A stretch of 62,850 nt of DNA, counting the filler, from Asterionella formosa (Eukaryota), in assembly GCA_002256025.1 (NCBI GenBank). It is 22 parts of 22 records of this genome, joined end to end, with 100 filler letters (N's around TTAATTAATTAA, not from the genome) between each part and the next. Parts side by side here need not be neighbours in the genome. Positions count along the whole stretch, not along the records: positions 1 to 26,604 come from NKIB01001681.1; 21 more parts are not named here. The stretch is one strand, 5' to 3'. Both the position numbers and the translations under genes were made by a program. The notes beneath the pieces were generated by a model, which did not search any database, was not told where the DNA came from, and was given only the letters and a program-made list of their open reading frames with translations. Numbering within the stretch: the stretch's first letter is position 1; every line of letters begins with the position of its first letter. Positions 7,680 to 59,505 of this stretch are shown piece after piece.

Positions 7680-8876
7680 ATGACAATACCTACTAGAGTA
7701 CTTCCTTTGATTTCTGGCCTCACGCTACTTGGCGTTGTCGCATGGACCGTGAATACACAACCAGAAGCTACGGGCGACCTTCTGATGACAGTCAGAAGGC
7801 TGATGGACCCACGAACAGTCGAAATTAAAGGATCACACTCTGCTAGTTCCTATCTCCTCGATCCGTTTCCTTTCGCACTCCCCGAGCAAGCCAGAGATTG
7901 GTGCGTTGAAACAGACCTTGGCCGCCTACCGTATGAGCGATGTGATCCAAATAAACCACTGAATGTGATTCGCCTCGTTGGAGGTATGACAAATGCATTC
8001 AAGGGAGTATTGCTGGGAGCGATTCTATCCTTTGAAGAAAACAGGTGTTTTTACTTAGATGAATCAAGATCGCATCTGCGATTACGAAATAAAGATCAGG
8101 GTGAAGACCCTATCCCTTCTATTGTCAACAGATACTTTGAGCCCATTGGTCTTCAAAAGGACCACCCAAAGGTGAAACAAGCCTTCAGCGATGGGTCATA
8201 CGAGGAGCGACCATTCATTACTCTCTGGGATGACATACGTGTCCGTCGGCCACTTAATACTTCATCTTCCATTGAAAACCTCTTTTATCATGAAATTGAA
8301 GGCCATTACTTGAAACGCATAATGATGAGGCGCATGTGGAGATTCTTACCGCAGTTCCGAAATCGTGCCTGTTCGGGATTAGAGACCCATTTGCCATCAT
8401 CAGAGGACTACATCGCAATGTCAGTTCGTCGAGGCGATAAAACAACGGAAGGAATAATTTATCTCGAGATGAGCATGTACATTGACGAAGCACAGAAAGC
8501 AATTGGTACTATATTTGATGGTAGAGTACCGACTATTTTTGTTGCAACCGATGATTGTAGCGCTCTTGGCGAGCTTCGCTCACTTCGACCAAGTTGGACC
8601 TTTGTGAGCGAATGTGATTTTGCAACCAAGGATTCGTCGGACCTTCACGGTTTCGCCCTCACGGATATGAAGGACTGGACTATGGAGCAGACAGATGCGC
8701 ATTTTGAAAAGTTTTTTGTTGAGCTGCTTGGCCTGGTGTCGGCCAAGTATTTTATTGGAACGTCATACACAAATGTGAGTTGGTGGGTGTTTTTTATGCG
8801 CAAGCCGGATCGGAACATGTTTCAGATATTAGATCCTCCGGCTGATAACAAAGATCACCTCTTGAATTTTTGGTAA
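7680..8876 (+). CDS. Type II membrane glycosyltransferase, alpha-1,6-fucosyltransferase-like (GT23/FUT8/NodZ superfamily), copy 1
   Basis: Intact ~398-aa ORF (first ATG at 7680) with an N-terminal hydrophobic anchor. It has fucosyltransferase motif I (AMSVRRGDK), motif II (IFVATDD) and a motif III-like stretch (ELLGLVSAKYFIGTSYTNVS). Paralog at 14917. Confidence 0.8.
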   Translation: MTIPTRVLPLISGLTLLGVVAWTVNTQPEATGDLLMTVRRLMDPRTVEIKGSHSASSYLLDPFPFALPEQARDWCVETDLGRLPYERCDPNKPLNVIRLVGGMTNAFKGVLLGAILSFEENRCFYLDESRSHLRLRNKDQGEDPIPSIVNRYFEPIGLQKDHPKVKQAFSDGSYEERPFITLWDDIRVRRPLNTSSSIENLFYHEIEGHYLKRIMMRRMWRFLPQFRNRACSGLETHLPSSEDYIAMSVRRGDKTTEGIIYLEMSMYIDEAQKAIGTIFDGRVPTIFVATDDCSALGELRSLRPSWTFVSECDFATKDSSDLHGFALTDMKDWTMEQTDAHFEKFFVELLGLVSAKYFIGTSYTNVSWWVFFMRKPDRNMFQILDPPADNKDHLLNFW

Positions 8877-8991: not shown

Positions 8992-9613
8992 ACACTGTTC
9001 AAGCTTTGAACGGAAAATTGTACACGACAGCTACTTTATAGAATAGGCTCGCTTTCTATAAGTCAGATTTCATGATTGATTGTGAAACTCGTTTGCTTCG
9101 GATAAAATGAGTGAGGACAGAGTTGGTTTATCTTTTTATGAAAGCAAACGTCAGTCATTCAAAGTATATGATATACTTGTATTAGTCTGGAAAATTTATG
9201 GCAATGGCATATTGTGATGTAGGCACCCGTACATATACTGTATGCCGCGGCATTGGTGTTGTCTATTAGTTGCCGCAACCGCATTTGTGAATTCAATTCA
9301 GCATGATGGTTGGCATTCATGGCTGCCTAAAAATACCCATACCGTGGTAACAATTCCTACCGTACATACGATTGTTGATGTTATTTTTGCTAGAAACATC
9401 ATATGTATGGATTTGCACGAATGAACGATATTATGACCCAAAGTTTGAGAATGACCATTTCGTGACAAGTACTAGCAGAGAAATATTGCAACGTGCCCCG
9501 GGTAAGCAAAGTCATTCAATAGTGAACAGGCACAGTATGGTGGAAATATGTATGACCAATACGTATGTATGTTGAACAACCCATGCATGGATTTATACCG
9601 GGCAGCCAACAGC

Positions 9614-9651
9614 TACCTGGCTGGTATCTGGTACCTGGTACCTGGTACCAG
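9614..9651. repeat. CTGGTAC heptamer / GGTACC-palindrome array
   Basis: CTGGTATCTGGTACCTGGTACCTGGTACCAG. The same motif family recurs at many sites in the window. Confidence 0.8.
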
Positions 9652-9889
9652 ACAGCAGTAAAACCAACAGGGTATTAAATTAATTATATAGCACACAATA
9701 GTAGAATATTATTTGGTAAATAGTTTCTCTGTGGCATCGTCGTGATTGTGTCAACAGGTGTTTTATATCTTTCTTGCCAAGTATAATAGTACTATATTCA
9801 TTCATGGGAATACAAAATGACTTTTGTCCAGATACGCCATTGCGTCCAAGAATAGAATTATCGGTACATATGGTGCCTGGTACCAGGTA

Positions 9890-10897
9890 CTCCCTCTGTC
9901 CAATAACAGTTGCATCGATTCGCCGGCACCACCAGTGTCTTTACTGCTCGCATTTAAAGGATTACGTAGCTAACATACCATCTTTCGGCTTCCTCGAAAA
10001 AATGCGTTTTTTATGAGTTACATAGATGTGAACATATACTCTGTTTTTGTAATTAAATATTTAGCATATAAATAAGTTAATCGAAACCAATTTAACATAT
10101 ATTTATACATCCGTACATGAATATAGATATCAAGCAAGCAAGCAATGCTAATGTGTTGATTTTGCATCATCATTTTTGTCAAAATGGATGTTGACATCGC
10201 CAATGCGCCCATTCCTGATGGTCAAATCCTTAACTTGATGGCCAGAAACAATGGCCGCAGCTGTGCCCACAATCACTGTTGCAGATCAACAGTAAAGGTT
10301 GGCTCTGTGGTTTTCTTCTCTTTCTGTGTTGTGTTGGACGAGATCCTCCAAGGACTCGAGGATGCTATTGATCAATAATTTGCGGGAAAGCGATGCAAAC
10401 ACATAAGTATCATCATTTCAATAGGATTTGAGCACGCGGTTCCAAATACGTTGTATGGTTGTTTTATCAACTTTGAACCAAACCACCAAAAATTTAATAG
10501 TTCCACGCACTAAAATGAGCCAACCATCTATTTGGTCCCCTCCATCAGGTCCTTTTTGGAGGTTCCGTAAACCATAATCCAACACGAGTTGACGCTCTTC
10601 TGTTGTTAGATCCTTTCTCATGTGCTTGTTGACAAGAGGTGGTGGCAAGAAAAAAAGGGGGGGGTCAGGCATCTGCATTTCACTCGAGATAAGCAAAAGT
10701 AAAAGTCGAAAAAGCCGAAAAACGTTTTTTTTCAAATGTAGTTGCCAATTTTAATCTTTCTTGATACACTTTATACATGGATCCGTAGCCTAGAGCAAGC
10801 TGCACCATTGGGCTATTGATCTGGAGAAAATCGTAGGAGTCAAAATGGCCCCGGATTTATTCGAATTATCGATGCAACTGTTATTGGCCAGAGGGAG
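9890..10897 (-). mobile_element. Non-autonomous Tc1/mariner (Stowaway-type termini) element, 1008 bp, TA TSD
   Basis: 30-bp TIRs CTCCCTCTG(T/G)CCAATAACAGTTGCATCGAT at 9890-9919 and 10868-10897 (1 mismatch), flanked by TA on both sides. It contains a truncated transposase N-terminus on the minus strand (MRKDLTTEERQLVL...FKVDKTTIQRIWNR, ~10418-10621). Confidence 0.88.
10184..10378 (+). pseudogene. Passenger ORF remnant inside the mariner element with a GRSCxxxxCC motif
   Basis: DGQILNLMARNNGRSCAHNHCCRSTVKVGSVVFF resembles the decayed frame at ~32295-32410 (DGDELLGQNAFNNGCSCEQHECCGKVV*SDDVIMF). Confidence 0.45.
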
Positions 10898-13800
10898 TAC
10901 CTGGTAGTCCACCTGGCATGAATAATATACTGGTATGAATAAAAGAACAATACTTTCAAAAGTTTCGAAAATGGGAAATGATTCGAAATCCCGCATTTAT
11001 GTGGTATGCAAATAAATATTTAAATTTAAATCCGCATGATGTGCATTTGAAACCCTAGGCAAAAATTAAAATATTGGTTAGGGTTGCCGAAAATCCCTGG
11101 AAATTTGAAATTTTATTAGCTATTTTTGAATGAAGTGATTCCATTTGAAATATTTAAATCAATGGAAATTCGCGCGTACCACATGCAACATGATGTGCTT
11201 AAAATTAGATGCGACTAAAAGGGCATTAATTTTGGTGGTAAAAAGATTTCTAACTTCTTCACATTGTTTACAGCTAAATTAATTTCGTTTTGTCGCTGCA
11301 ATCAAGAGAAAGGAAATGAGGGGTTGATCGAAAACGATTTCTCTCATTTCTTAGCCAATCTTGGCAACATTTAAAATTAATCTCTAATACATGTAAGGCG
11401 AGCTTAAGTATGAAATTTGGCCAAGATTGGCTGAAAGATTTAGAAGTTGAAAATCGCAAAGTAACAATAATAATTTTTTTGGAGTTTTAGCGCTGGTATG
11501 TTTTGACATTGAAACGTCACATTTAGAAGTAGTTTTGTCAGGATGAAGCTAGACAAAACTACTCATATATACAAAGGATTGTCACAATGATGAGATTGAT
11601 TTAAGCGACAATTACTCTAGTACTGCTAACTGGGATGTTTTGCTCCGCTTTTCCGCAGTGCTGCTGACATCGAAGAACACTAAAATCGTGCCATCAGTTC
11701 TACGATTTTACAAAAATAAATCGAAAAAGTTGTCTGTATTTGAATGCAGCTAGTGGAAACGACAATCAACAGGTTGATGCAAGCACCCTCTTCATCCAAC
11801 AACCAACAAGTGTCACAATGGAAATTTATCCCACCAAAGCATCAAATGCTATCACAAGCGCCACAACATCCATGAATGACATTGACAAAATCAAGAACAA
11901 GAGGACTTTTTCCAGTATACCCAAGTGACAACAAGCGCCCACAACAAGCAACAACCAACAAGCACGCAAGCACGAAGATCTTACTGCCAAGAACCAACAC
12001 AAGGCATTATGAGCGCCGCAACAGCAATCAAATCTACGAAGTCAAGAACAAGACTGTTTTTACAACACACAACCTCCCACAACAAAGAACAAGAACCAAC
12101 TAGTGGAATGATGGTACCGGAAGATCTCACTGTTCTGCCAAGGACCAGCCTACACAAGGCATAATGATAATCACATCTACGATTTCGTTAAGAAAACAAT
12201 GTTTGCATAATAATACTCCTTTACATTGCAGCTTCAATGGAGATTTGATTGTTTGATTGATTTTAGACTAAAAATAGTACAGCTTTACTAGCGAATACCG
12301 GTATGACATACCGCCGTCACACCATGATATATGAAAAATACGCGACGAAGCTAGTAAAATCTGGTTCCACTATACTGTCCCTATTTTTGTATAGACAAAC
12401 TCACCCGTTTACTGTAAAAGTCGTAAATAGTCTTCAATGAATTCAAATAGACAGGAATGTTGCCTGTAAAGGTTGTTTTTAGATCCATAGTGGTCTTAAA
12501 AGTTACTGCCATGGTCGTTTGAAAGTCACTAGCTTTGTCGTGTTAAGTGATTTTTCGGGGTATCAAATCAATTTTTAGCGATGATTACTACTATGAACTA
12601 GTATCAAAAAATATTATAGGGTTTATTGAAAAGATTCAAAAGTACAATAGGGATTTTATTGACAAGCCTCATCAAAAAAATCGGGGAAACTAGCAAAACA
12701 AGTTTTAGCTTTAACAGCGAACCACTCAAAGAGATTACAGGGACTAACCCAATCGATAAGCCTCTTCACCTTTTGCCCACCAGCTCTAACACCTTGCTTC
12801 TTTCACGTCAAGATCTTCGCACAACATGTCAAAATGCAAGAAAATACCTCAAGGCATAATTTTGTACTGACTATCATGGACATAACAGTTCTCGTAGTAG
12901 TTAGAATTTCTATGGAATCTTGGGTAGTTCATTTTGAAGTTAAATATAGAAATATAATTAGCATGCAACAATCCACTGCTTGTTCCTTAAGCGACTAGAA
13001 ATGTCGCATCGTTTTGAGAAAAACTAATTCCCAAAAAAACCATTGTGCATTTAGAAACACTTATGTGCAAGGATGGTAATGGAACGTCCCTCCACATACT
13101 CTGGAAATCATCAAAGAAAGGCAACGAGAGGCGGTAGTTCATCAAACAGCTCGCACTGGAGGTACTAGCTTACACTAAGAGGCTACCTTAGCAATCCCCA
13201 CCCTAGCTATCGTCTTGCTTTTCGATGAGAACTGTGGTAATTTAAGTAATTTTTAGTATCTCCAGGTAATTTTTATTTAGGGACAATATAGGGGCCCAGT
13301 GAATTTTTCGGTAGTCCAATTTTAGGTTTGAGCAGGGACCATCGAGCAACATCATAAGTAGAATTTTCATGGGAAAAAGTCTATACACATCAAAAATGCA
13401 TGGAGCACCGAATATACCGGTACCATTGAAAATTCGAACCAATGTTCAGCCAAAGTATGAAACAGAAAATGTCAACATGAACAGATCATAGACAACACAA
13501 TTTTTTACCAAATTCCTAGACGAGGGAGTGACTACCACAACCCACCCTTCATCAACCAAATCTTACAGGGCCATTGAGCGCAATGAATACAATCCTAATC
13601 AAGGCTAGTATTAATTCGCTATAAAAATTAATTTTTATATGTATGCTGGGGATTATTTCATCATCATGAATGCCATCATCACCACATGGTCTGGCTGATG
13701 ATGATGGTTGTTGAGGATAAACGACTACTGTTAGCAGACATACTAAGTATATCTAGTACTGTAATGACTGCACAGTCTGCACGACCGACAGTCATGGTGA

Positions 13801-14916: not shown

Positions 14917-16104
14917 ATGACGATGTTAAGAACCGTTACTCTGATTTCTGGCCTCACTCTACTTAGCTTCGTGGCATGGACGGCAAAAACACAACCAAAA
15001 GCTACGGGCGAACCTCTGATGACAGTCAGAAGGTTGATGGACCCACGAACAGTCGAAACAAAAGGACCACGCTCTGCCAGTTCCTACCTCGATCCGTTGC
15101 CTTTCGCACTCCCTGAACAGGCCAGGGATTGGTGCGTTGAAACAGACCTTGGCCGCCTACCATATGAGCGATGTGATCCAAATAAACCACTGAATGTGAT
15201 TCGCCTCGTTGGAGGTATGACAAATGCATTCAAGGGAGTATTGCTGGGAGCGATTCTATCCTTTGAAGAAAACAGGTGTTTTTACTTAGATGAATCAAGA
15301 TCGCATCTGCGATTGCGAAATAAAGATCAGGGTGAAGACCCTATTCCTTCTATTGTCAACAGGTACTTCGAGCCCATTGGTCTTCAAAAGGATCACCCAA
15401 ACGTGAAACAAGCATTCAGAGATGGTTATTTCCAGTACCGAGAATACACCGATCTCTGGGATGATTTACGTGTCCGTCGGCCTGTAAATACCACATCTTC
15501 CATTGAAAACCTCTTTTATCAAGAAATTGAAGGCCATCACTTGAAACGCACAATGTTGAAACGCATGTGGAGGTTCCTACCGCAGTTCCGAAATCGTGCC
15601 TGTTCGGGATTAGAGACCCATTTGCCATCGTCAGAGGATTACATGGCAATGTCGATTCGTCGAGGTGACAAGACATTGGAAGGCGTTACTTATCTCGATA
15701 TTCGGATGTACATTGACAACGCACAAGAAGCAATTGGTACTATATTTGATGGTAGAGTACCGACTATTTTTGTTGCAACCGATGATTGCAGCGCTCTTGG
15801 CGAGCTCCGCTCACTTCGACCAAGTTGGATCTTTGTGAGCGAATGTGATATTACAACCAAGGATTCGTCGGATCTTCATGGGTTCACCCTCAGAGATATG
15901 AAAGAATGGACTATAGAACAGACAGATGCGCATTATGAAAAGTTTTTTGTTGAGCTACTTGGCCTGGTGTCGGCCAAGTATTTTATTGGAACAGCATACA
16001 CAAATGTGAGTTGGTGGGTGTTTTTTATGCGTCGGCCGGATCGGGACTCATTTCAATTGTTGGATCCACCGAATGGGAAAGATCACCTCTTGAACTTTTG
16101 GTAA
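14917..16104 (+). CDS. Type II membrane glycosyltransferase, alpha-1,6-fucosyltransferase-like (GT23/FUT8/NodZ superfamily), copy 2
   Basis: Intact 395-aa ORF with an N-terminal anchor and SIRRGDK, IFVATDD and FIGTAYTNVS motifs. It aligns end to end with 7680..8876. Confidence 0.8.
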   Translation: MTMLRTVTLISGLTLLSFVAWTAKTQPKATGEPLMTVRRLMDPRTVETKGPRSASSYLDPLPFALPEQARDWCVETDLGRLPYERCDPNKPLNVIRLVGGMTNAFKGVLLGAILSFEENRCFYLDESRSHLRLRNKDQGEDPIPSIVNRYFEPIGLQKDHPNVKQAFRDGYFQYREYTDLWDDLRVRRPVNTTSSIENLFYQEIEGHHLKRTMLKRMWRFLPQFRNRACSGLETHLPSSEDYMAMSIRRGDKTLEGVTYLDIRMYIDNAQEAIGTIFDGRVPTIFVATDDCSALGELRSLRPSWIFVSECDITTKDSSDLHGFTLRDMKEWTIEQTDAHYEKFFVELLGLVSAKYFIGTAYTNVSWWVFFMRRPDRDSFQLLDPPNGKDHLLNFW

Positions 16105-27529: not shown

Positions 27530-27805
27530 ACACCAGGTACAGTATGTAGCTATATAACTAGGTGGTACTACTATCGGTACCTGGTAGTCTACCAGTAGTC
27601 GTACATATTCAACAACTCGCAAACGCGTTTGTACCGGTAGCTGCCTCCTATACATTCGTGCCGGCAGACTCGCTTTGTTGCATGCACCACATCCAAATGG
27701 AGTTTGTCTGGTCCATACCTGGTACCTGGTACCAGGGCACCGTAGTCTACCAGGAGCTATGTACCGGTACGGTACCAGGTAATGGATTGCCAGTACCGGT
27801 ATACG
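27530..27805. repeat. Cluster of GGTACC/CCWGGTA palindromic motifs upstream of the LPA1-like gene
   Basis: CCAGGTAC, GGTACCTGGTAG, TACCTGGTACCTGGTACCAGG, GTACCGGTACGGTACCAGGTA and GTACCGGTA. Confidence 0.7.
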
Positions 27806-30162: not shown

Positions 30163-31198
30163 AGCACCTCGACAACCCAGGCGAAACGCACTGGCAAGCA
30201 TTGGAACGCCTACTCGGGTATTTGTGTCTACATGGGGACATTGCATGCAGAATGAAACTACGTGCTCCCAACGAGCTACGTATTCAAGATGTCGTGGATA
30301 GCCCCTTCGCCTCTAATCCTGATACCGGTACACGAAAGAGTGTCAGCGGTTATTTAGGCACGATCGAAGGGTGCGCCCTAACTCACTGGATATCAAAAGG
30401 ACAGGATATCGTAACGCAATCAAGCACCGAGTTTGAATATGTCGCACTCATTCAGTAACGGCTCAAAGGAAACTGTCTTCGGAACGAATCTACTGGGAGA
30501 AATAACCACTATCGTGATGCCTAGCCTAATGGGTGAGGACAATACCGGCGCGATTTATTTAACGAAAAATCATCAGGTCGGGGCACGTACAAAACACATC
30601 GATGTAAGATACCACTATGTACGAGAACAAGTCGAAAACGGAACGATTAAGGTTGACTACGTCAATACGGAAAAGAATCCTGCAGATGTCCTAACTAAAA
30701 ATGTCACGGACAAGATAATGAACATGCACGGATACGCGATCCAAAACGGGATGATGGATTGTTGGAACAAGGAGAGTGTTAATGTGAGCTCATCTACGTA
30801 GTTAGGACTCGGAGTCAAACGAGTCAAACGATTCGAATGAGTCCACTTTGATGTACCAAGCTCTCATCAACCACACATTATACCTTGTTACTGCGACTAT
30901 AATGAGCAGGACAATAAAAGCTATTTTGGAAGACCGATAGTTTGAAAATGAATGATCATGGTTAAATACCTATGATCAGTAAGTGTGAGATAGACATGGG
31001 TCTATCTATGATTGTATGTTTCTAGAAATGCAAACAGCATTTGGAGAATAGTTTGTTTGTTTGTTCAAACAGAACAACCTAAACTAGATTAGTAAACTCA
31101 CAATAAGAATATAGAAACTGAGAGAGAAACGAACGTCTCTATCTATAGTCTTCTTTGTCTAACGATATAGATCTATACAAAAAGGTAATACTTTAACA
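30163..31198 (+). mobile_element. pol: Ty1/Copia 3' end: RT/RNase H (frameshifted), PPT and 3' LTR
   Basis: HWQALERLLGYL, VDSPFA, RKSVSG, SSTEFEYVAL / EDNTGAI, RTKHIDVRYHYVRE and NPADVLTK. There is a 4-bp insertion frameshift near 30450. The purine tract AAGGAGAG is followed by TG. Confidence 0.92.
30777..31198 (+). repeat. Copia 3' LTR (422 bp)
   Basis: Starts TGTTAA right after the PPT and ends ACTTTAACA. The sister copy at 51478-51895 has perfect 9-bp terminal inverted repeats TGTTAAAGT...ACTTTAACA. Confidence 0.8.
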
Positions 31199-32094
31199 TT
31201 GATTATGGTCATAATCATGTATACTGATCAGAACACACACGTTCATTCGCAGTAGCATTGACATGCTTATTATTGTGGTCATTATTTATATAGAATAAGT
31301 GAAATGCCTTATGCTGAAAATTTAGAACAACCAAGATGAACATCCACTTGATTGTCCAAAGGAATCAAAGTAACAAATACTTGCACCACAGCACCTTGTA
31401 GACATTCAATTTCTGCTGATGATGCAAACAAATCTTCCATCCTAACTTCCCACTCATCTTCCATAATGGCACCACTGGCATTGGTAAAAGCCAACGTGGC
31501 ATTATCAGGGTGATGGTGCTCATCATACAGGTCCCACAAATCTTGCTAGCACCACCTCCTTGCCAAGGCCAGACCCACTTGAAATCATTGTAGCAACACC
31601 TGATTTTAAGATCATCAAACTTTTGAAAATGACAACAGTTATCTAGTAGTACAATGCCTTCAAAAAACCATAAAGAGGTTTTTGGAAACAAGTGACATTT
31701 GGTAAATACTGCCAGTATGGAACAAAGAAGCAAGTACCAAAATGAGTTCACAAAGAAAAAGCGAATTGGCAATTATCCAAAGGAACCCAATNNNNNNNNN
31801 NNNNNNNNNNNNNNNNNNNNNNNNNNNNNNNNNNNTTAATTAATTAANNNNNNNNNNNNNNNNNNNNNNNNNNNNNNNNNNNNNNNNNNNNTTCTCTTAG
31901 TTGATGTATACAATACGTGTTAGTTGAGTTCTGATACATATGATATAACACTAACACTATATACATCTGTATTGATGTGTGGGATTGCTCACTCTCCCAC
32001 ACTAAGGTAAAAACTTTTACCAATGAAAAGGTTTGATACGAAGAATATTAATTTGTTCTTTAATATGCACACAGCATACTTCACTGTACTGGAC

Positions 32095-50784: not shown

Positions 50785-51477
50785 NNNNNNNNNNNNNNNN
50801 NNNNNNNNNNNNNNNNNNNNNNNNNNNNTTAATTAATTAANNNNNNNNNNNNNNNNNNNNNNNNNNNNNNNNNNNNNNNNNNNNATTGGGTTCCTTTGGA
50901 TAATTGCCAATTCGCTTTTTCTTTGTGAACTCATTTTGGTACTTGCTTCTTTGTTCCATACTGGCAGTATTTACCAAATGTCACTTGTTTCCAAAAACCT
51001 CTTTATGATTTTTTGAAGGCATTGTACTACTAGATAACTGTTGTCATTTTCAAAAGTTTGATGATCTTAAAATCAGGTGTTGCTACAATGATTTCAAGTG
51101 GGTCTGGCCTTGGCAAGGAGGTGGTGCTAGCAAGATTTGTGGGACCTGTATGATGAGCACCATCACCCTGATAATGCCACGTTGGCTTTTACCAATGCCA
51201 GTGGTTCCATTATGGAAGATGAGTGGGAAGTTAGGATGGAAGATTTGTTTGCATCATCAGCAGAAATTGAATGTCTACAAGGTGCTGTGGTGCAAGTATT
51301 TGTTACTTTGATTCCTTTGGACGATCAAGTGGATGTTCATCTTGGTTGTTCTAAATTTTCAGCATAAGGCATTTCACTTATTCTATATAAATAATGACCA
51401 CAATAATAAGCATGTCAATGCTACTGCGAATGAACGTGTGTGTTCTGATCAGTATACATGATTATGACCATAATCAA

Positions 51478-52509
51478 TGTTAAAGTATAACCTTTTTGTA
51501 TAGATCTATATCGTTAGACAAAGAAGACTATAGATAGAGACGTTCGTTTCTCTCTCAGTTTATATATTCTTATTGTGAGTTTACTAATCTAGTCTAGGTT
51601 GTTCTGTTTGAACAAACGAACTATTCTCCAAATGCTGTTTGCATTTCTAGAAACATACAATCATAGATAAACCCATGTCTATCTCACACTTACTGATCAT
51701 AGGTATTTAACCATGATCATTCATTTTCAAACTATCGGTCTTCCGAAATAGCTTTTATTGTCCGGCTCATTATAGTCGCAGTAACAAGGTATAATGTGTG
51801 GTTGATGAGAGCTTGGTACATCAAAGTGGACTCATTCGAATCGTTTGACTCGTTTGACTCCGAGTCCTAACTACGTAGATGAGCTCACTTTAACACTCTC
51901 CTTGTTCCAACAATCCATCATCCCATTTTGGATCGCGTATCCGTGCATGTTCATTATCTTGTCCGTGACATTTTTAGTTAGGACATCTGCAGGATTCTTT
52001 TCCGTATTGACGTAGTCAACCTTAATCGTTCCGTTTTCGACTTGTTCTCGTACATAGTGGTATCTTACATCGATGTGTTTTGTACGTGCCCCGACCTGAT
52101 GATTTTTCGTTAAATAAATCGCGCCGGTATTGTCCTCACCCATTAGGCTAGGCATCACGATAGTGGTTATTTCTCCCAGTAGATTCGTTCCGAAGACAGT
52201 TTCCTTTGAGCCGTTACTGAATGAGTGCAACATATTCAAACTCGGTGCTTGATTGCGTTACGATATCCTGTCCTTTTGATATCCAGTGAGTTAGGGCGCA
52301 CCCTTCAATCGTGCCTAAATAACCGCTGACACTCTTTCGTGTACCGGTATCAGGATTAGAGGCGAAGGGGCTATCCACGACATCTTGAATACGTAGCTCG
52401 TTGGGAGCACGTAGTTTCAATCTGCATGCAATGTCCCCATGTAGACACAAATACCCGAGTAGGCGTTCCAATGCTTGCCAGTGCGTTTCGCCTGGGTTGT
52501 CGAGGTGCT
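51478..52509 (-). mobile_element. pol: Ty1/Copia 3' end (RNase H, PPT, 418-bp LTR at 51478-51895); allelic copy of 30163-31198
   Basis: Near-identical reverse complement of the 30163-31791 contig, including the frameshift and the flank. Confidence 0.92.
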
Positions 52510-57681: not shown

Positions 57682-57851
57682 NNNNNNNNNNNNNNNNNNN
57701 NNNNNNNNNNNNNNNNNNNNNNNNNTTAATTAATTAANNNNNNNNNNNNNNNNNNNNNNNNNNNNNNNNNNNNNNNNNNNNTTCTCAGGATCATATTTCT
57801 GCAGCCGGTCAGTCATGATATTTTGGGGGGAAAGCAAGGCAAATCGATTTC

Positions 57852-58425
57852 AAGTCAGCAGTCAGCGATTTCATGTCAGCAGTCAGCAATTTCATGTCAG
57901 CAGTCAGCGATTTCATGTCAGCAGTCAGCAGTCAGCAGCAGCAATTTTTTCAAATTTTCAGCGAATCAAGTCAGCAGTCAGTAGTTAGAAAGTTGAAGTC
58001 AGCATTTTTACGACAGTACATAGTGGTAGCAATATGAAGAAGTAGATAGCAACGATTTTTTTCATGCATCAATGTCTATTTCACACTTTTTAATCATGGA
58101 CGGAGTACCAGGTACCTCTGTGTTACTCCCAATAGTATGAACGTAGTAGAAGGCATCGCTTTTAGTATCCCAACAACAAAAAGATGCGTTTCCATTGTTA
58201 TTCAAATATGAAAAGTAAACACTATTTGTACACTGGAGCAGTAGCTGGTCTCTGCCTGTGTACAAAGTAGGTTTGCTTGACATCAGCATGTTGATGTTAC
58301 TAGCAGTCAGCAACTGCATGTCAGTAGTCAGCAGTCAGCAAATAATTCAAATTTTCAGCAAATCAAGTCAGCAGTTAGCAACAAGAAGTCTGCAGTCAGC
58401 AATTTGAAGTTGGTAGTCAGCGATT
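57852..58425. repeat. AGTCAGC heptamer arrays with a 21-bp higher-order unit, in two blocks
   Basis: (TTTCATGTCAGCAGTCAGCRA)n at 57850-57945. A similar ~100-bp block recurs at 58300-58425. Confidence 0.85.
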
Positions 58426-58649: not shown

Positions 58650-59073
58650 TACGCAACAAGAATTTAATGGTTCCAGGCAAAACAAGCTGACCATCTATCA
58701 TTGTCGCTTCCACCAGGTCCTCATTTGAGGTTCTGTAAAGTATAATCAAGAATCATTTGACACTCTTCTACTGTCAAATCCTGCCCTTCTTGTATGCTTG
58801 TTAAGATTGAGTTGTGGCAAAAAATTGGGGGATCAGGCATCTGTATTTTGCTCGAGATAGGCAAAAGTAAATAAAAATCGAAAAAACAAAAAAGCCATTT
58901 TTTAAAACCTAGTTGCCAGTTTTAAATTAAAACATTTATATTTTGCTTGTACATAGATCAGTACTTTTTAGGATGGCCCACAATAGGGCAATTTAGCCGG
59001 AGAAAATCGAAGCAGTCGAAATGGCCCCGGAGAAATTTTAAGATTTAATGCAATCGTTTTCCCCGAAACGGAG
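58650..59073 (-). mobile_element. Older, diverged relative of the 9890-10897 mariner (5' end and transposase start)
   Basis: Aligns with ~10480-10860 (CAGGTCCT, GAGGTTC.GTAAA, GGGGG.TCAGGCATCTG.ATTT..CTCGAGATA.GCAAAAGTAAA, TAGTTGCCA, AAATGGCCCCGGA). It ends in CGGAG-TA. Confidence 0.75.
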
Positions 59074-59505
59074 TAGACTAGGTACCGTTCGTTACCTGTA
59101 CAGATGCATAACCCAGGTTCCAGTCCTTTTGTCCTGTGCCGTGGAGGAGTCCACATGAGTTTTTGTGTCTAATAAGAAAGCAACCATCACGTACTGTATT
59201 TATATTTTATGCTCTGGAGTAACCAGATAACTGCCGTTTATTGTATCTGGTGCCAGGTACCTGGTACCGGGTATTTGTGTACAAGTAAAGCCTGGTATGT
59301 ATTGTTGTTCCACCCAAATTCAAAACAGCCAGCAATTCAACATTCCTCCGTATTCACGGTATGTAGACGATAACAGTGATTTCGTTTGCAGGGAAGGATG
59401 TATCNNNNNNNNNNNNNNNNNNNNNNNNNNNNNNNNNNNNNNNNNNNNTTAATTAATTAANNNNNNNNNNNNNNNNNNNNNNNNNNNNNNNNNNNNNNNN
59501 NNNNA

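Follow-up and report, generated by a model that had tools for sequence, protein, structure and literature searches.

We analysed a 62,850-nucleotide stretch of DNA from the freshwater diatom Asterionella formosa (assembly GCA_002256025.1; hereafter the window), which carries at positions 9890-10897 a mariner-like transposable element lying inside a short palindromic array, with a CCAGG unit on its left and a CCTGG unit on its right. The reading we favour, to which we assign a probability of roughly 0.6, is that the family of this element integrates at TA dinucleotides within pre-existing TACCWGG arrays through target choice by its transposase, and that the family is not the maker of those arrays. 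This view follows from the observation that the few other copies that could be examined also tend to sit in TACCWGG-type arrays. The arrays therefore look like preferred landing sites and not like scars of this element, on evidence that is thin but significant.

The window is a concatenation of one 26.6-kb contig and 21 pieces of ~1.6 kb (~1625 nt, from 26605 on), joined by linkers of the form N44-TTAATTAATTAA-N44, and the arrays found across it consequently belong to separate contigs of one assembly. Any open reading frame (ORF) or repeat that spans a linker in 26605-62850 is an artefact. The piece at 30163-31791 is the reverse complement of 50885-52509, with 98.8% identity. The features of the insertion itself are as follows.

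9890..10897, minus strand (transposase sense): internally deleted mariner-like element, 1008 bp, defined by its ends, TA duplication, transposase remnant and depth.
9872..9887, no strand: left flank (GGTGCCTGGTACCAGG), with units TG-CCTGG and TA-CCAGG, from the sequence.
9888..9889, no strand: TA, left copy of the target-site duplication, from the sequence.
9890..9919, plus strand: left terminal inverted repeat, CTCCCTCTGTCC..., agreeing with the Stowaway consensus CTCCCTCCRT at 9 of 10 bases.
10868..10897, minus strand: right terminal inverted repeat, from the inverted-repeat alignment.
10898..10899, no strand: TA, right copy of the target-site duplication, from the sequence.
10900..10918, no strand: right flank, CCTGG-TA-GTC-CA-CCTGG-CA, a decaying continuation of the array, from the sequence.
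10373..10672, minus strand: remnant of the transposase N-terminus, matching amino acids 1-99 of P0001 at 87% identity with one in-frame stop (tblastn), and with a weak DUF7769 helix-turn-helix match.

The insertion reads ...GGTGCCTGGTACCAGG-TA-[CTCCCTCTGTCCAATAACAGTTGCATCGAT ... ATCGATGCAACTGTTATTGGCCAGAGGGAG]-TA-CCTGGTAGTCC..., with inverted ends of 30 nt that are complementary at 29 of 30 bases, the exception being a single mismatch. A 20-nt pattern of the ends matched the window twice, both times at the ends of this element, against 0.01 matches expected. Scanning for TA pairs up to 6 kb apart returned nine pairs, among which the sole real element was 9890-10897, recovered in three registers; the remaining results were array-to-array matches, leaving only one clean TA-flanked inverted-repeat element in the window. 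Inverted symmetry reaches 9 bases past the element on each side (arms 9881-9919 and 10868-10906; 39 nt, 97% complementary). Excision of the element with one TA gives GGTACCAGG-TA-CCTGGTAG, and given that the flanks are CCAGG and CCTGG, removal restores a palindrome of the kind that is enriched in the window. The sequence-only reading, which had placed a mariner within CCAGG-TA-CCTGG, described this correctly. The two units that touch the element are perfect and the outer ones have decayed, with TG in place of TA on the left and CA in place of TA twice on the right. A CWG target duplication was also considered for 9890-10897 and rejected, as CAG and CTG, the triplets on its two sides, do not form a direct repeat. 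With DNA parameters, the 58-nt rebuilt empty site folds at -9.0 kcal/mol, compared to -4.8 +/- 1.9 kcal/mol for mononucleotide shuffles, of which 9 in 300 reach so low a value; because this is just modestly better than the shuffles, we do not argue for a cruciform target.

To read the flanks of further copies, we used public ORFs that run from the flank into the left end of the element, in which the residues preceding Y (TA + C) spell out the flanking DNA. In the window, the corresponding frame continues without a stop out of the left flank and on through the end into the element (ORF 9774-10016, ...HMVPGTRY|SLCPITVASIRRHH...), and it translates the flank as VPGTR. A word-index search returned P0002 and P0003, and a profile search of 1.84 billion representatives returned 11 proteins at E <= 0.001. 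Peptides of the element are present in P0002, P0003, P0004, P0008 and P0010, with P0027 a cluster mate of P0004, while P0005 (5404 amino acids) and P0006 (1246 amino acids) hold no element peptides and were removed from the copy count. Since the upstream parts of these ORFs all differ, the further copies represent separate loci. The residues before the TA are VPGTR|Y in the window, ...APSSVPGTR|Y in P0002, MVHGLPGTR|Y in P0004 (LPGTR|Y in P0027), ...DTRFMVPW|Y in P0003, ...YELPGTS|Y in P0010 and, in another frame, ...NSYW|L in P0008.

Among the 7180 oriented TA sites of the window, PGTR precedes 14, and all 12 of the sites listed read CCNGGNACCAG(G/A); VPW precedes four, all of them GT(A/G)CCCTGG, so that neither context precedes more than 0.2% of TA sites. 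Back-translated on this calibration, CCWGG very probably lies directly before the TA in three of the five further copies (PGTR|Y, PGTR|Y and VPW|Y). By comparison, CCWGG stands before 63 of the 7180 oriented sites (0.88%), or before 59 of 5168 (1.1%) once long ORFs and linkers are set aside, and the probability of finding it in at least three of five copies is ~1.5e-5. P0010 and P0008 have translations of array sequence further upstream (VPGYQVP and YLVPGT). The sequence-only reading had offered preferred landing pads as one account of the arrays and had named other copies at random TA sites as the finding that would speak against it. With CCWGG in three of five copies and near-variants in the other two, against about 1% of TA sites, such randomness was not what we found, and the proposal is supported at the level of the family.

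The right side could be sampled only with bias. Two contigs of another subfamily align through the end of the element to 10905, continuing as TA-CCTGGT (X2 record 14 and X7 record 30), and one contig from run X1 links the right end to GTACCTGGTACC-like sequence. A search with the right-end ORF (10790-10996, minus strand) gave no candidate, and the flank sample is therefore one of left ends. The flank upstream of P0003 is the end of another repeat, apparently followed by TA, which leaves a single unit between that repeat and the mariner. P0003, P0007, P0009, P0011 and P0012 share an N-terminal stretch of 34 residues (MLCYFFCTQEIFGS...TRF) and then diverge. As a small control, none of the four other continuations of this repeat (P0007, P0009, P0011 and P0012) begins with an array unit.

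CCWGG and CCGG, each between TAs, make up the arrays, which are positioned outside long ORFs. GGTACC occurs 44 times in the window compared to 5.9 expected (largest shuffle, 11), and the exact 12-mer CCAGGTACCTGG recurs at two further places (23520 and 59253) against an expectation of 0.00. Among the 3590 TA sites, CCWGGTACCWGG was found 10 times, TACCWGGTA 18 times and TACCGGTA 16 times, and relative to a second-order Markov expectation the enriched words include TACCGGTA (16 vs 0.43), TACCTGGTA (12 vs 0.23) and TACCAGGTA (6 vs 0.24). The claim that the same palindrome forms arrays across the window thus holds as regards its enrichment, but the arrays stand on separate contigs. It had further been stressed that the insertion hit exactly the central TA. 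This is automatic and adds nothing, because within a (TACCWGG)n array CCWGG flanks each TA left and right. One array lies close to the element:

9621..9649, no strand: (CTGGTAC)x4 array, 240 nt upstream of the element (Tandem Repeats Finder period 7, 4.1 copies, 95% matches).

The summed contig depth over 9606-9706, which holds this array, is ~650x that of unique flank in X1, indicating very high copy. A third short palindrome-like unit between TAs, TA-GTC-TA (complement TA-GAC-TA), was also observed, at 27583, 60708, 59072-59080 and 10905-10911. TAGTCTA occurs seven times (2.0 expected), and it adjoins CCWGG and CCGG units as well as the end of a second element of the family described below.

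Assignment of the element to its family rests on its ends and on the transposase remnant. The ends, CTCCCTCTGT, are Stowaway-like, agreeing at 9 of 10 bases with the consensus CTCCCTCCRT (PMC1925063). Plant mariner-like ends are reported to start with CTCCCTCC directly after the TA (PMC1925063, PMC6696609), and the ends described here resemble that of bamboo Ppmar2, which is given together with its TA (PMC6696609). One minus-strand frame is open from MRKDL... for ~158 codons save for two internal stops, and 10148-10621 on the minus strand, read through its stops as X, matched the 398-amino-acid protein P0001 at E 1.6e-36. Beyond amino acids 1-99 of P0001, nothing was matched in the window element by tblastn; because this remainder is absent, the window copy lacks the catalytic part and is dead. 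Given Stowaway-type ends, the TA present at both ends and a remnant that shares 87% identity with a 398-amino-acid D..D..D protein, the element is mariner-like with a TA duplication, as had been claimed for it. Judged from its sequence, the segment 9890-10897 represents an internally deleted and dead member of a high-copy Tc1/mariner family of the plant-type mariner-like/Stowaway group, with a putative DDE/D RNase-H-like transposase.

The cluster of P0001 has 55 members. Three of them, P0026, P0025 and P0020, keep the C-terminus (HIDEKW ... QHDNAS ... NSPDLNINDLSFF), in which the D of QHDNAS is followed after 34 residues by the D of SPDLN and after 39 by the D of NINDLSFF; P0001 and P0022 carry V at the latter position. 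Either D may be the catalytic one. Plant mariner-like elements are described as belonging to a DD39D class (PMC4054914). Pfam DDE_3 matched at profile positions 79-121 in all four family proteins at E 0.001-0.01 and 16-19 bits, below the cut-off of 28.6, and the matches to DUF7769 were likewise sub-threshold, with E 0.0087 in the window remnant and 2.2e-5 at best. A phmmer search of the PDB with a family protein gave no match, and an AlphaFold2 model of P0022, built from 15 near-identical sequences, had a mean pLDDT of 30.2, too low for use. In the Atlas, the nearest clusters, which we take as a lead only, consist of DUF7769 and 'Tc1-like transposase DDE' sets of eukaryotes, namely plants, oomycetes and diatoms.

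The abundance of the family was apparent from Logan contigs of four runs from four studies (X1, X2, X6 and X7), which were aligned to 9000-12000. In X1, the summed contig depth of the element was ~83,000-410,000, compared to ~950-1020 for the unique flanks (9202-9403 and 10919-11019), a ratio of ~90-430x; summed contig depth is no copy number, and we take it solely to mean many copies. Depth of the element was many-fold above the unique flanks in X2, X6 and X7 as well. By depth 10919-11019 is single-copy, and contigs of single-copy depth span the right junction in all four runs (X1 10889-11028, X2 10844-11056, X6 10668-11170 and X7 10748-11071), so this insertion is common to the samples. The left junction is spanned in X2 by one contig without differences (9739-9905); in X1, junction contigs were confined to the right side. 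Joints of internal deletions recurred across runs, with 10096->10727 present in X1, X2 and X7, and with 10074->10331 and 10165->10500 as further examples. That the same deletions appear at single-copy depth in two or three independent runs indicates fixed short derivatives of ~380-750 bp elsewhere in the genome, and such recurrent internal deletions are typical of a family shedding short derivatives. The segments 9404-9706 and 11020-11221, on either side of the element, are much more repetitive than the element, their summed depth reaching ~1000x that of unique flank. Loose contig ends are numerous at 11042, 11102, 11109 and 11179. [quoted passage not shown] Scars of mariner and Stowaway elements are reported to consist of TA copies and bases of the element's own ends (PMC4561436), and for Mos1 the non-transferred strand is described as cut 3 bases inside the end, leaving a 3-base stagger (PMC5481204). 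The ends of the present family are CTC/GAG and not CCWGG, and the scar words expected from such ends are not enriched in the window (TACTCAGTA 1, TACTGAGTA 0, TACTCGAGTA 0 and TACTCTA 1). TAGAGTA occurs seven times compared to 2.8 expected, with two of the seven within a duplicated ORF. Hairpin repair, as reported for hAT elements, duplicates flanking bases and adds no fixed unit (PMC4561436). Moreover, 9 of the 10 CCWGGTACCWGG sites in the window have no adjoining mariner copy. Because the ends are CTC/GAG, the predicted scars are not enriched and most arrays lack a copy, production of the arrays by this family is not supported, and neither is the self-reinforcing link between transposon and motif that had been drawn from it.

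We therefore favour a reading in which the arrays would have come first and served as landing pads. The element integrated at a TA and duplicated it; that TA would have been part of a short TACCWGG array. The most likely cause of the association would be that the transposase complex chooses its target, the favoured flank being a GC-rich palindrome, CCWGG-TA-CCWGG, in place of the usual AT-rich one. The strand-transfer complex of mariner is reported to bend its target by ~147 degrees at a symmetric TA, a distortion held to explain why bendable, palindromic and AT-rich flanks are favoured (PMC5481204).

Several points weigh against this view. The sample amounts to no more than six copies, all of them left flanks, of which five are known solely as amino acids, with CCWGG obtained by back-translation calibrated on the window. 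Two of the five further copies carry only near-variants of the unit (CCAGY, and YTGGY between two TAs), and in six of six copies a further TA lies 5-6 bases outside. P0010 is near the search threshold, and as the profile held flank columns, the flank may have aided its detection. Since the arrays are free of stop codons in all frames of that strand, there is a slight bias towards calling ORFs that cross them. The baseline comes from the window, whereas the ORFs come from public assemblies, possibly of related organisms. The joint of an empty site (9889->10898) was not seen in a listing that covered 15 of 166 joints and 24 of 1847 loose ends, which does not establish its absence. Lastly, the Mariner/Stowaway target in barley is reported to be AT-rich, WWnnT-AnnWW (PMC5738225), unlike the GC-rich preference proposed here.

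In some animal mariners the ends start with a pentamer resembling the array unit, and the true ends of the present element might similarly be longer, so that it would start CCAGGTACTCCCTC... and finish ...GAGGGAGTACCTGG, with the outer TA (9881-9882 and 10905-10906) as the duplicated one. In that case the palindromic target would be a part of the transposon, excision could leave CCWGG-type scars and the family would be the array maker. The 39-nt inverted repeat, as opposed to one of 30 nt, is itself flanked by TA on both sides, and the outer TA recurs in every copy read, as noted above. However, the outer unit varies among copies in both sequence and length (CCAGG, CCCTGG, CCAGY and YTGGY), whereas the codons that follow are conserved; two units or more stand before the window copy, and probably before P0002, P0004 and P0010 as well, for which one extra unit per end is insufficient. 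In the diverged relative at 59072 the end reads ...GGAG-TA and continues as GAC-TA, without CCWGG, and the published plant mariner-like ends start with CTCCCTCC right after the TA (PMC1925063, PMC6696609). We accordingly regard longer ends as improbable. Slightly better placed, though still unlikely, is growth of the units at transposon ends, whereby they would be added after landing by insertion and excision of other TA-transposons at the flanking TAs, or by end repair. This would suit the perfect state of the units that touch the element and the decay of the outer ones (TG on the left, CA twice on the right), as well as the contig of P0003, in which one unit stands exactly between the ends of two different repeats. 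Yet it requires independent events on both sides of one element and again in several copies; the majority of TACCWGGTA and TACCGGTA words in the window lie away from any recognisable element end, and the four other continuations after another repeat's end have no array unit.

A regional bias, in which arrays and transposons both pile up in harmless or open intergenic and promoter DNA in the absence of any targeting at the level of sequence, would agree with the position of the arrays outside long ORFs and with a neighbourhood full of other high-copy repeats (9404-9889 and 11020-12000 by depth). The association is nevertheless one of single-base precision, with CCWGG abutting the TA in four of six copies compared to ~1.1% of TA sites outside long ORFs, and we give this account little credence. 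Mere chance, that is, an ordinary TA insertion that fell in a palindrome, is least credible of all. A single window copy was chosen after the fact, being the one clean TA-flanked inverted-repeat element there, but for the further copies the probability of ~1.5e-5 given above speaks against coincidence, as does the rarity of PGTR and VPW, each of which precedes at most 0.2% of TA sites. A bolder variant of the favoured reading would take the TACCWGG/TACCGG arrays to be self-propagating landing pads, built from excision scars of TA elements and recognised at single-base precision by at least one unrelated mariner family, the DD39D-type one described here. We hold this to be doubtful, albeit less so than any of the four rivals just discussed; if true, short palindromic tracts of intergenic DNA would act as safe harbours towards which transposition is steered, and the target choice would be sequence-specific in a way not described for Tc1/mariner.

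Integration by elements of the Tc1/mariner superfamily is regarded as near-random among TA sites, apart from a weak AT-rich palindromic bias, and this is why the elements are in wide use as tools. The single insertion at 9890-10897 is in itself ordinary. A natural mariner family with a defined GC-rich palindromic array as its landing site, on the other hand, would demonstrate that strong target specificity can evolve within the superfamily, would offer a handle on how the target-bending complex reads flanking DNA, and would help explain the GGTACC-type palindromes with stacked transposons that fill the intergenic DNA of this diatom. In the literature searched, we found no printed account of a mariner family targeting a GC-rich palindromic array, or of the array words. 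For the latter only primer and barcode papers were among the matches listed, and searches on mariner-like transposases and diatoms gave nothing on diatom elements.

The closest known systems are the plant DD39D mariner-like elements (Osmar and Ppmar) and Stowaway MITEs, which likewise show a TA duplication and ends of CTCCCTC(C/T)GT right after the TA, have many internally deleted derivatives and, in the case of the DD39D elements, a D..D..D motif for which a 39-residue spacing is available here, beside one of 34. The window copy is not a true Stowaway MITE (<~600 bp, non-coding), since it measures 1008 bp and carries a transposase remnant. Two differences are that the host is a diatom and that the flanks are GC-rich CCWGG arrays, in contrast with the barley motif WWnnT-AnnWW (PMC5738225); that AT-rich motif does not occur at the window copy, flanked by CCAGG and CCTGG, and three of the five further copies are alike in this. 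Rice Micron/SaTar and Medicago MuTAnT offer a parallel in that most of the family lies inside short tandem repeats, with elements stacked (PMC5907723, PMC4486113). Here, an array adjoins the window copy on both sides and the further copies on the left, exactly as CCWGG in three of five and as near-variants in two, with the right sides sampled with bias. However, Micron, SaTar and MuTAnT are Mutator-like, make 9-10-bp duplications and target (TA)n or simple microsatellites, as opposed to a Tc1/mariner family with TA duplication and a 7-base palindromic unit.

Mos1 and Sleeping Beauty resemble the present case in that they are reported to insert at a symmetric TA and to favour flanks that are palindromic and bendable (PMC5481204), but that bias is weak and AT-rich, whereas here the flank is GC-rich and the enrichment apparently at least 50-fold. 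Finally, the enriched TA-CCGG-TA and TA-CCWGG-TA have the general form of canonical Tc1/mariner footprints, namely TA, a few bases and TA. Such footprints are described as carrying the end bases of the excised element (PMC4561436), which for this family are CTC/GAG, and words of that type are not enriched.

Searches for the end sequence elsewhere yielded little. The inner 20-mer of the end matched three loci in metagenome_contigs, all of them chance matches that lack the rest of the end, and the outer 20-mer matched none in genome_contigs and none in viral_contigs. Within the window, a second and more diverged relative of the family was found on another contig piece.

58555..59072, minus strand: diverged relative of the family, 71% identical over 394 columns to 10476-10855 (blastn).

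Amino acids 1-71 of P0001 matched this relative at 50-56% identity (tblastn). Its right end reads ...AACGGAG, followed by TA-GAC-TA-GGTACC, and thus lies beside array-type sequence, not against CCWGG; its left end was not found on the 1.6-kb piece. Just to the left of this relative, 21-nt tandem repeats rich in GTCAGCA (57845-57943 and 58283-58425) bracket a 300-nt segment, and these blocks are possibly the subterminal repeats of a further element. On the long contig, two ORFs of ~400 amino acids (7702-8876 and 14936-16104), ~7 kb apart, are 89% identical over 1175 nt, and represent either a duplicated gene or another mobile element.

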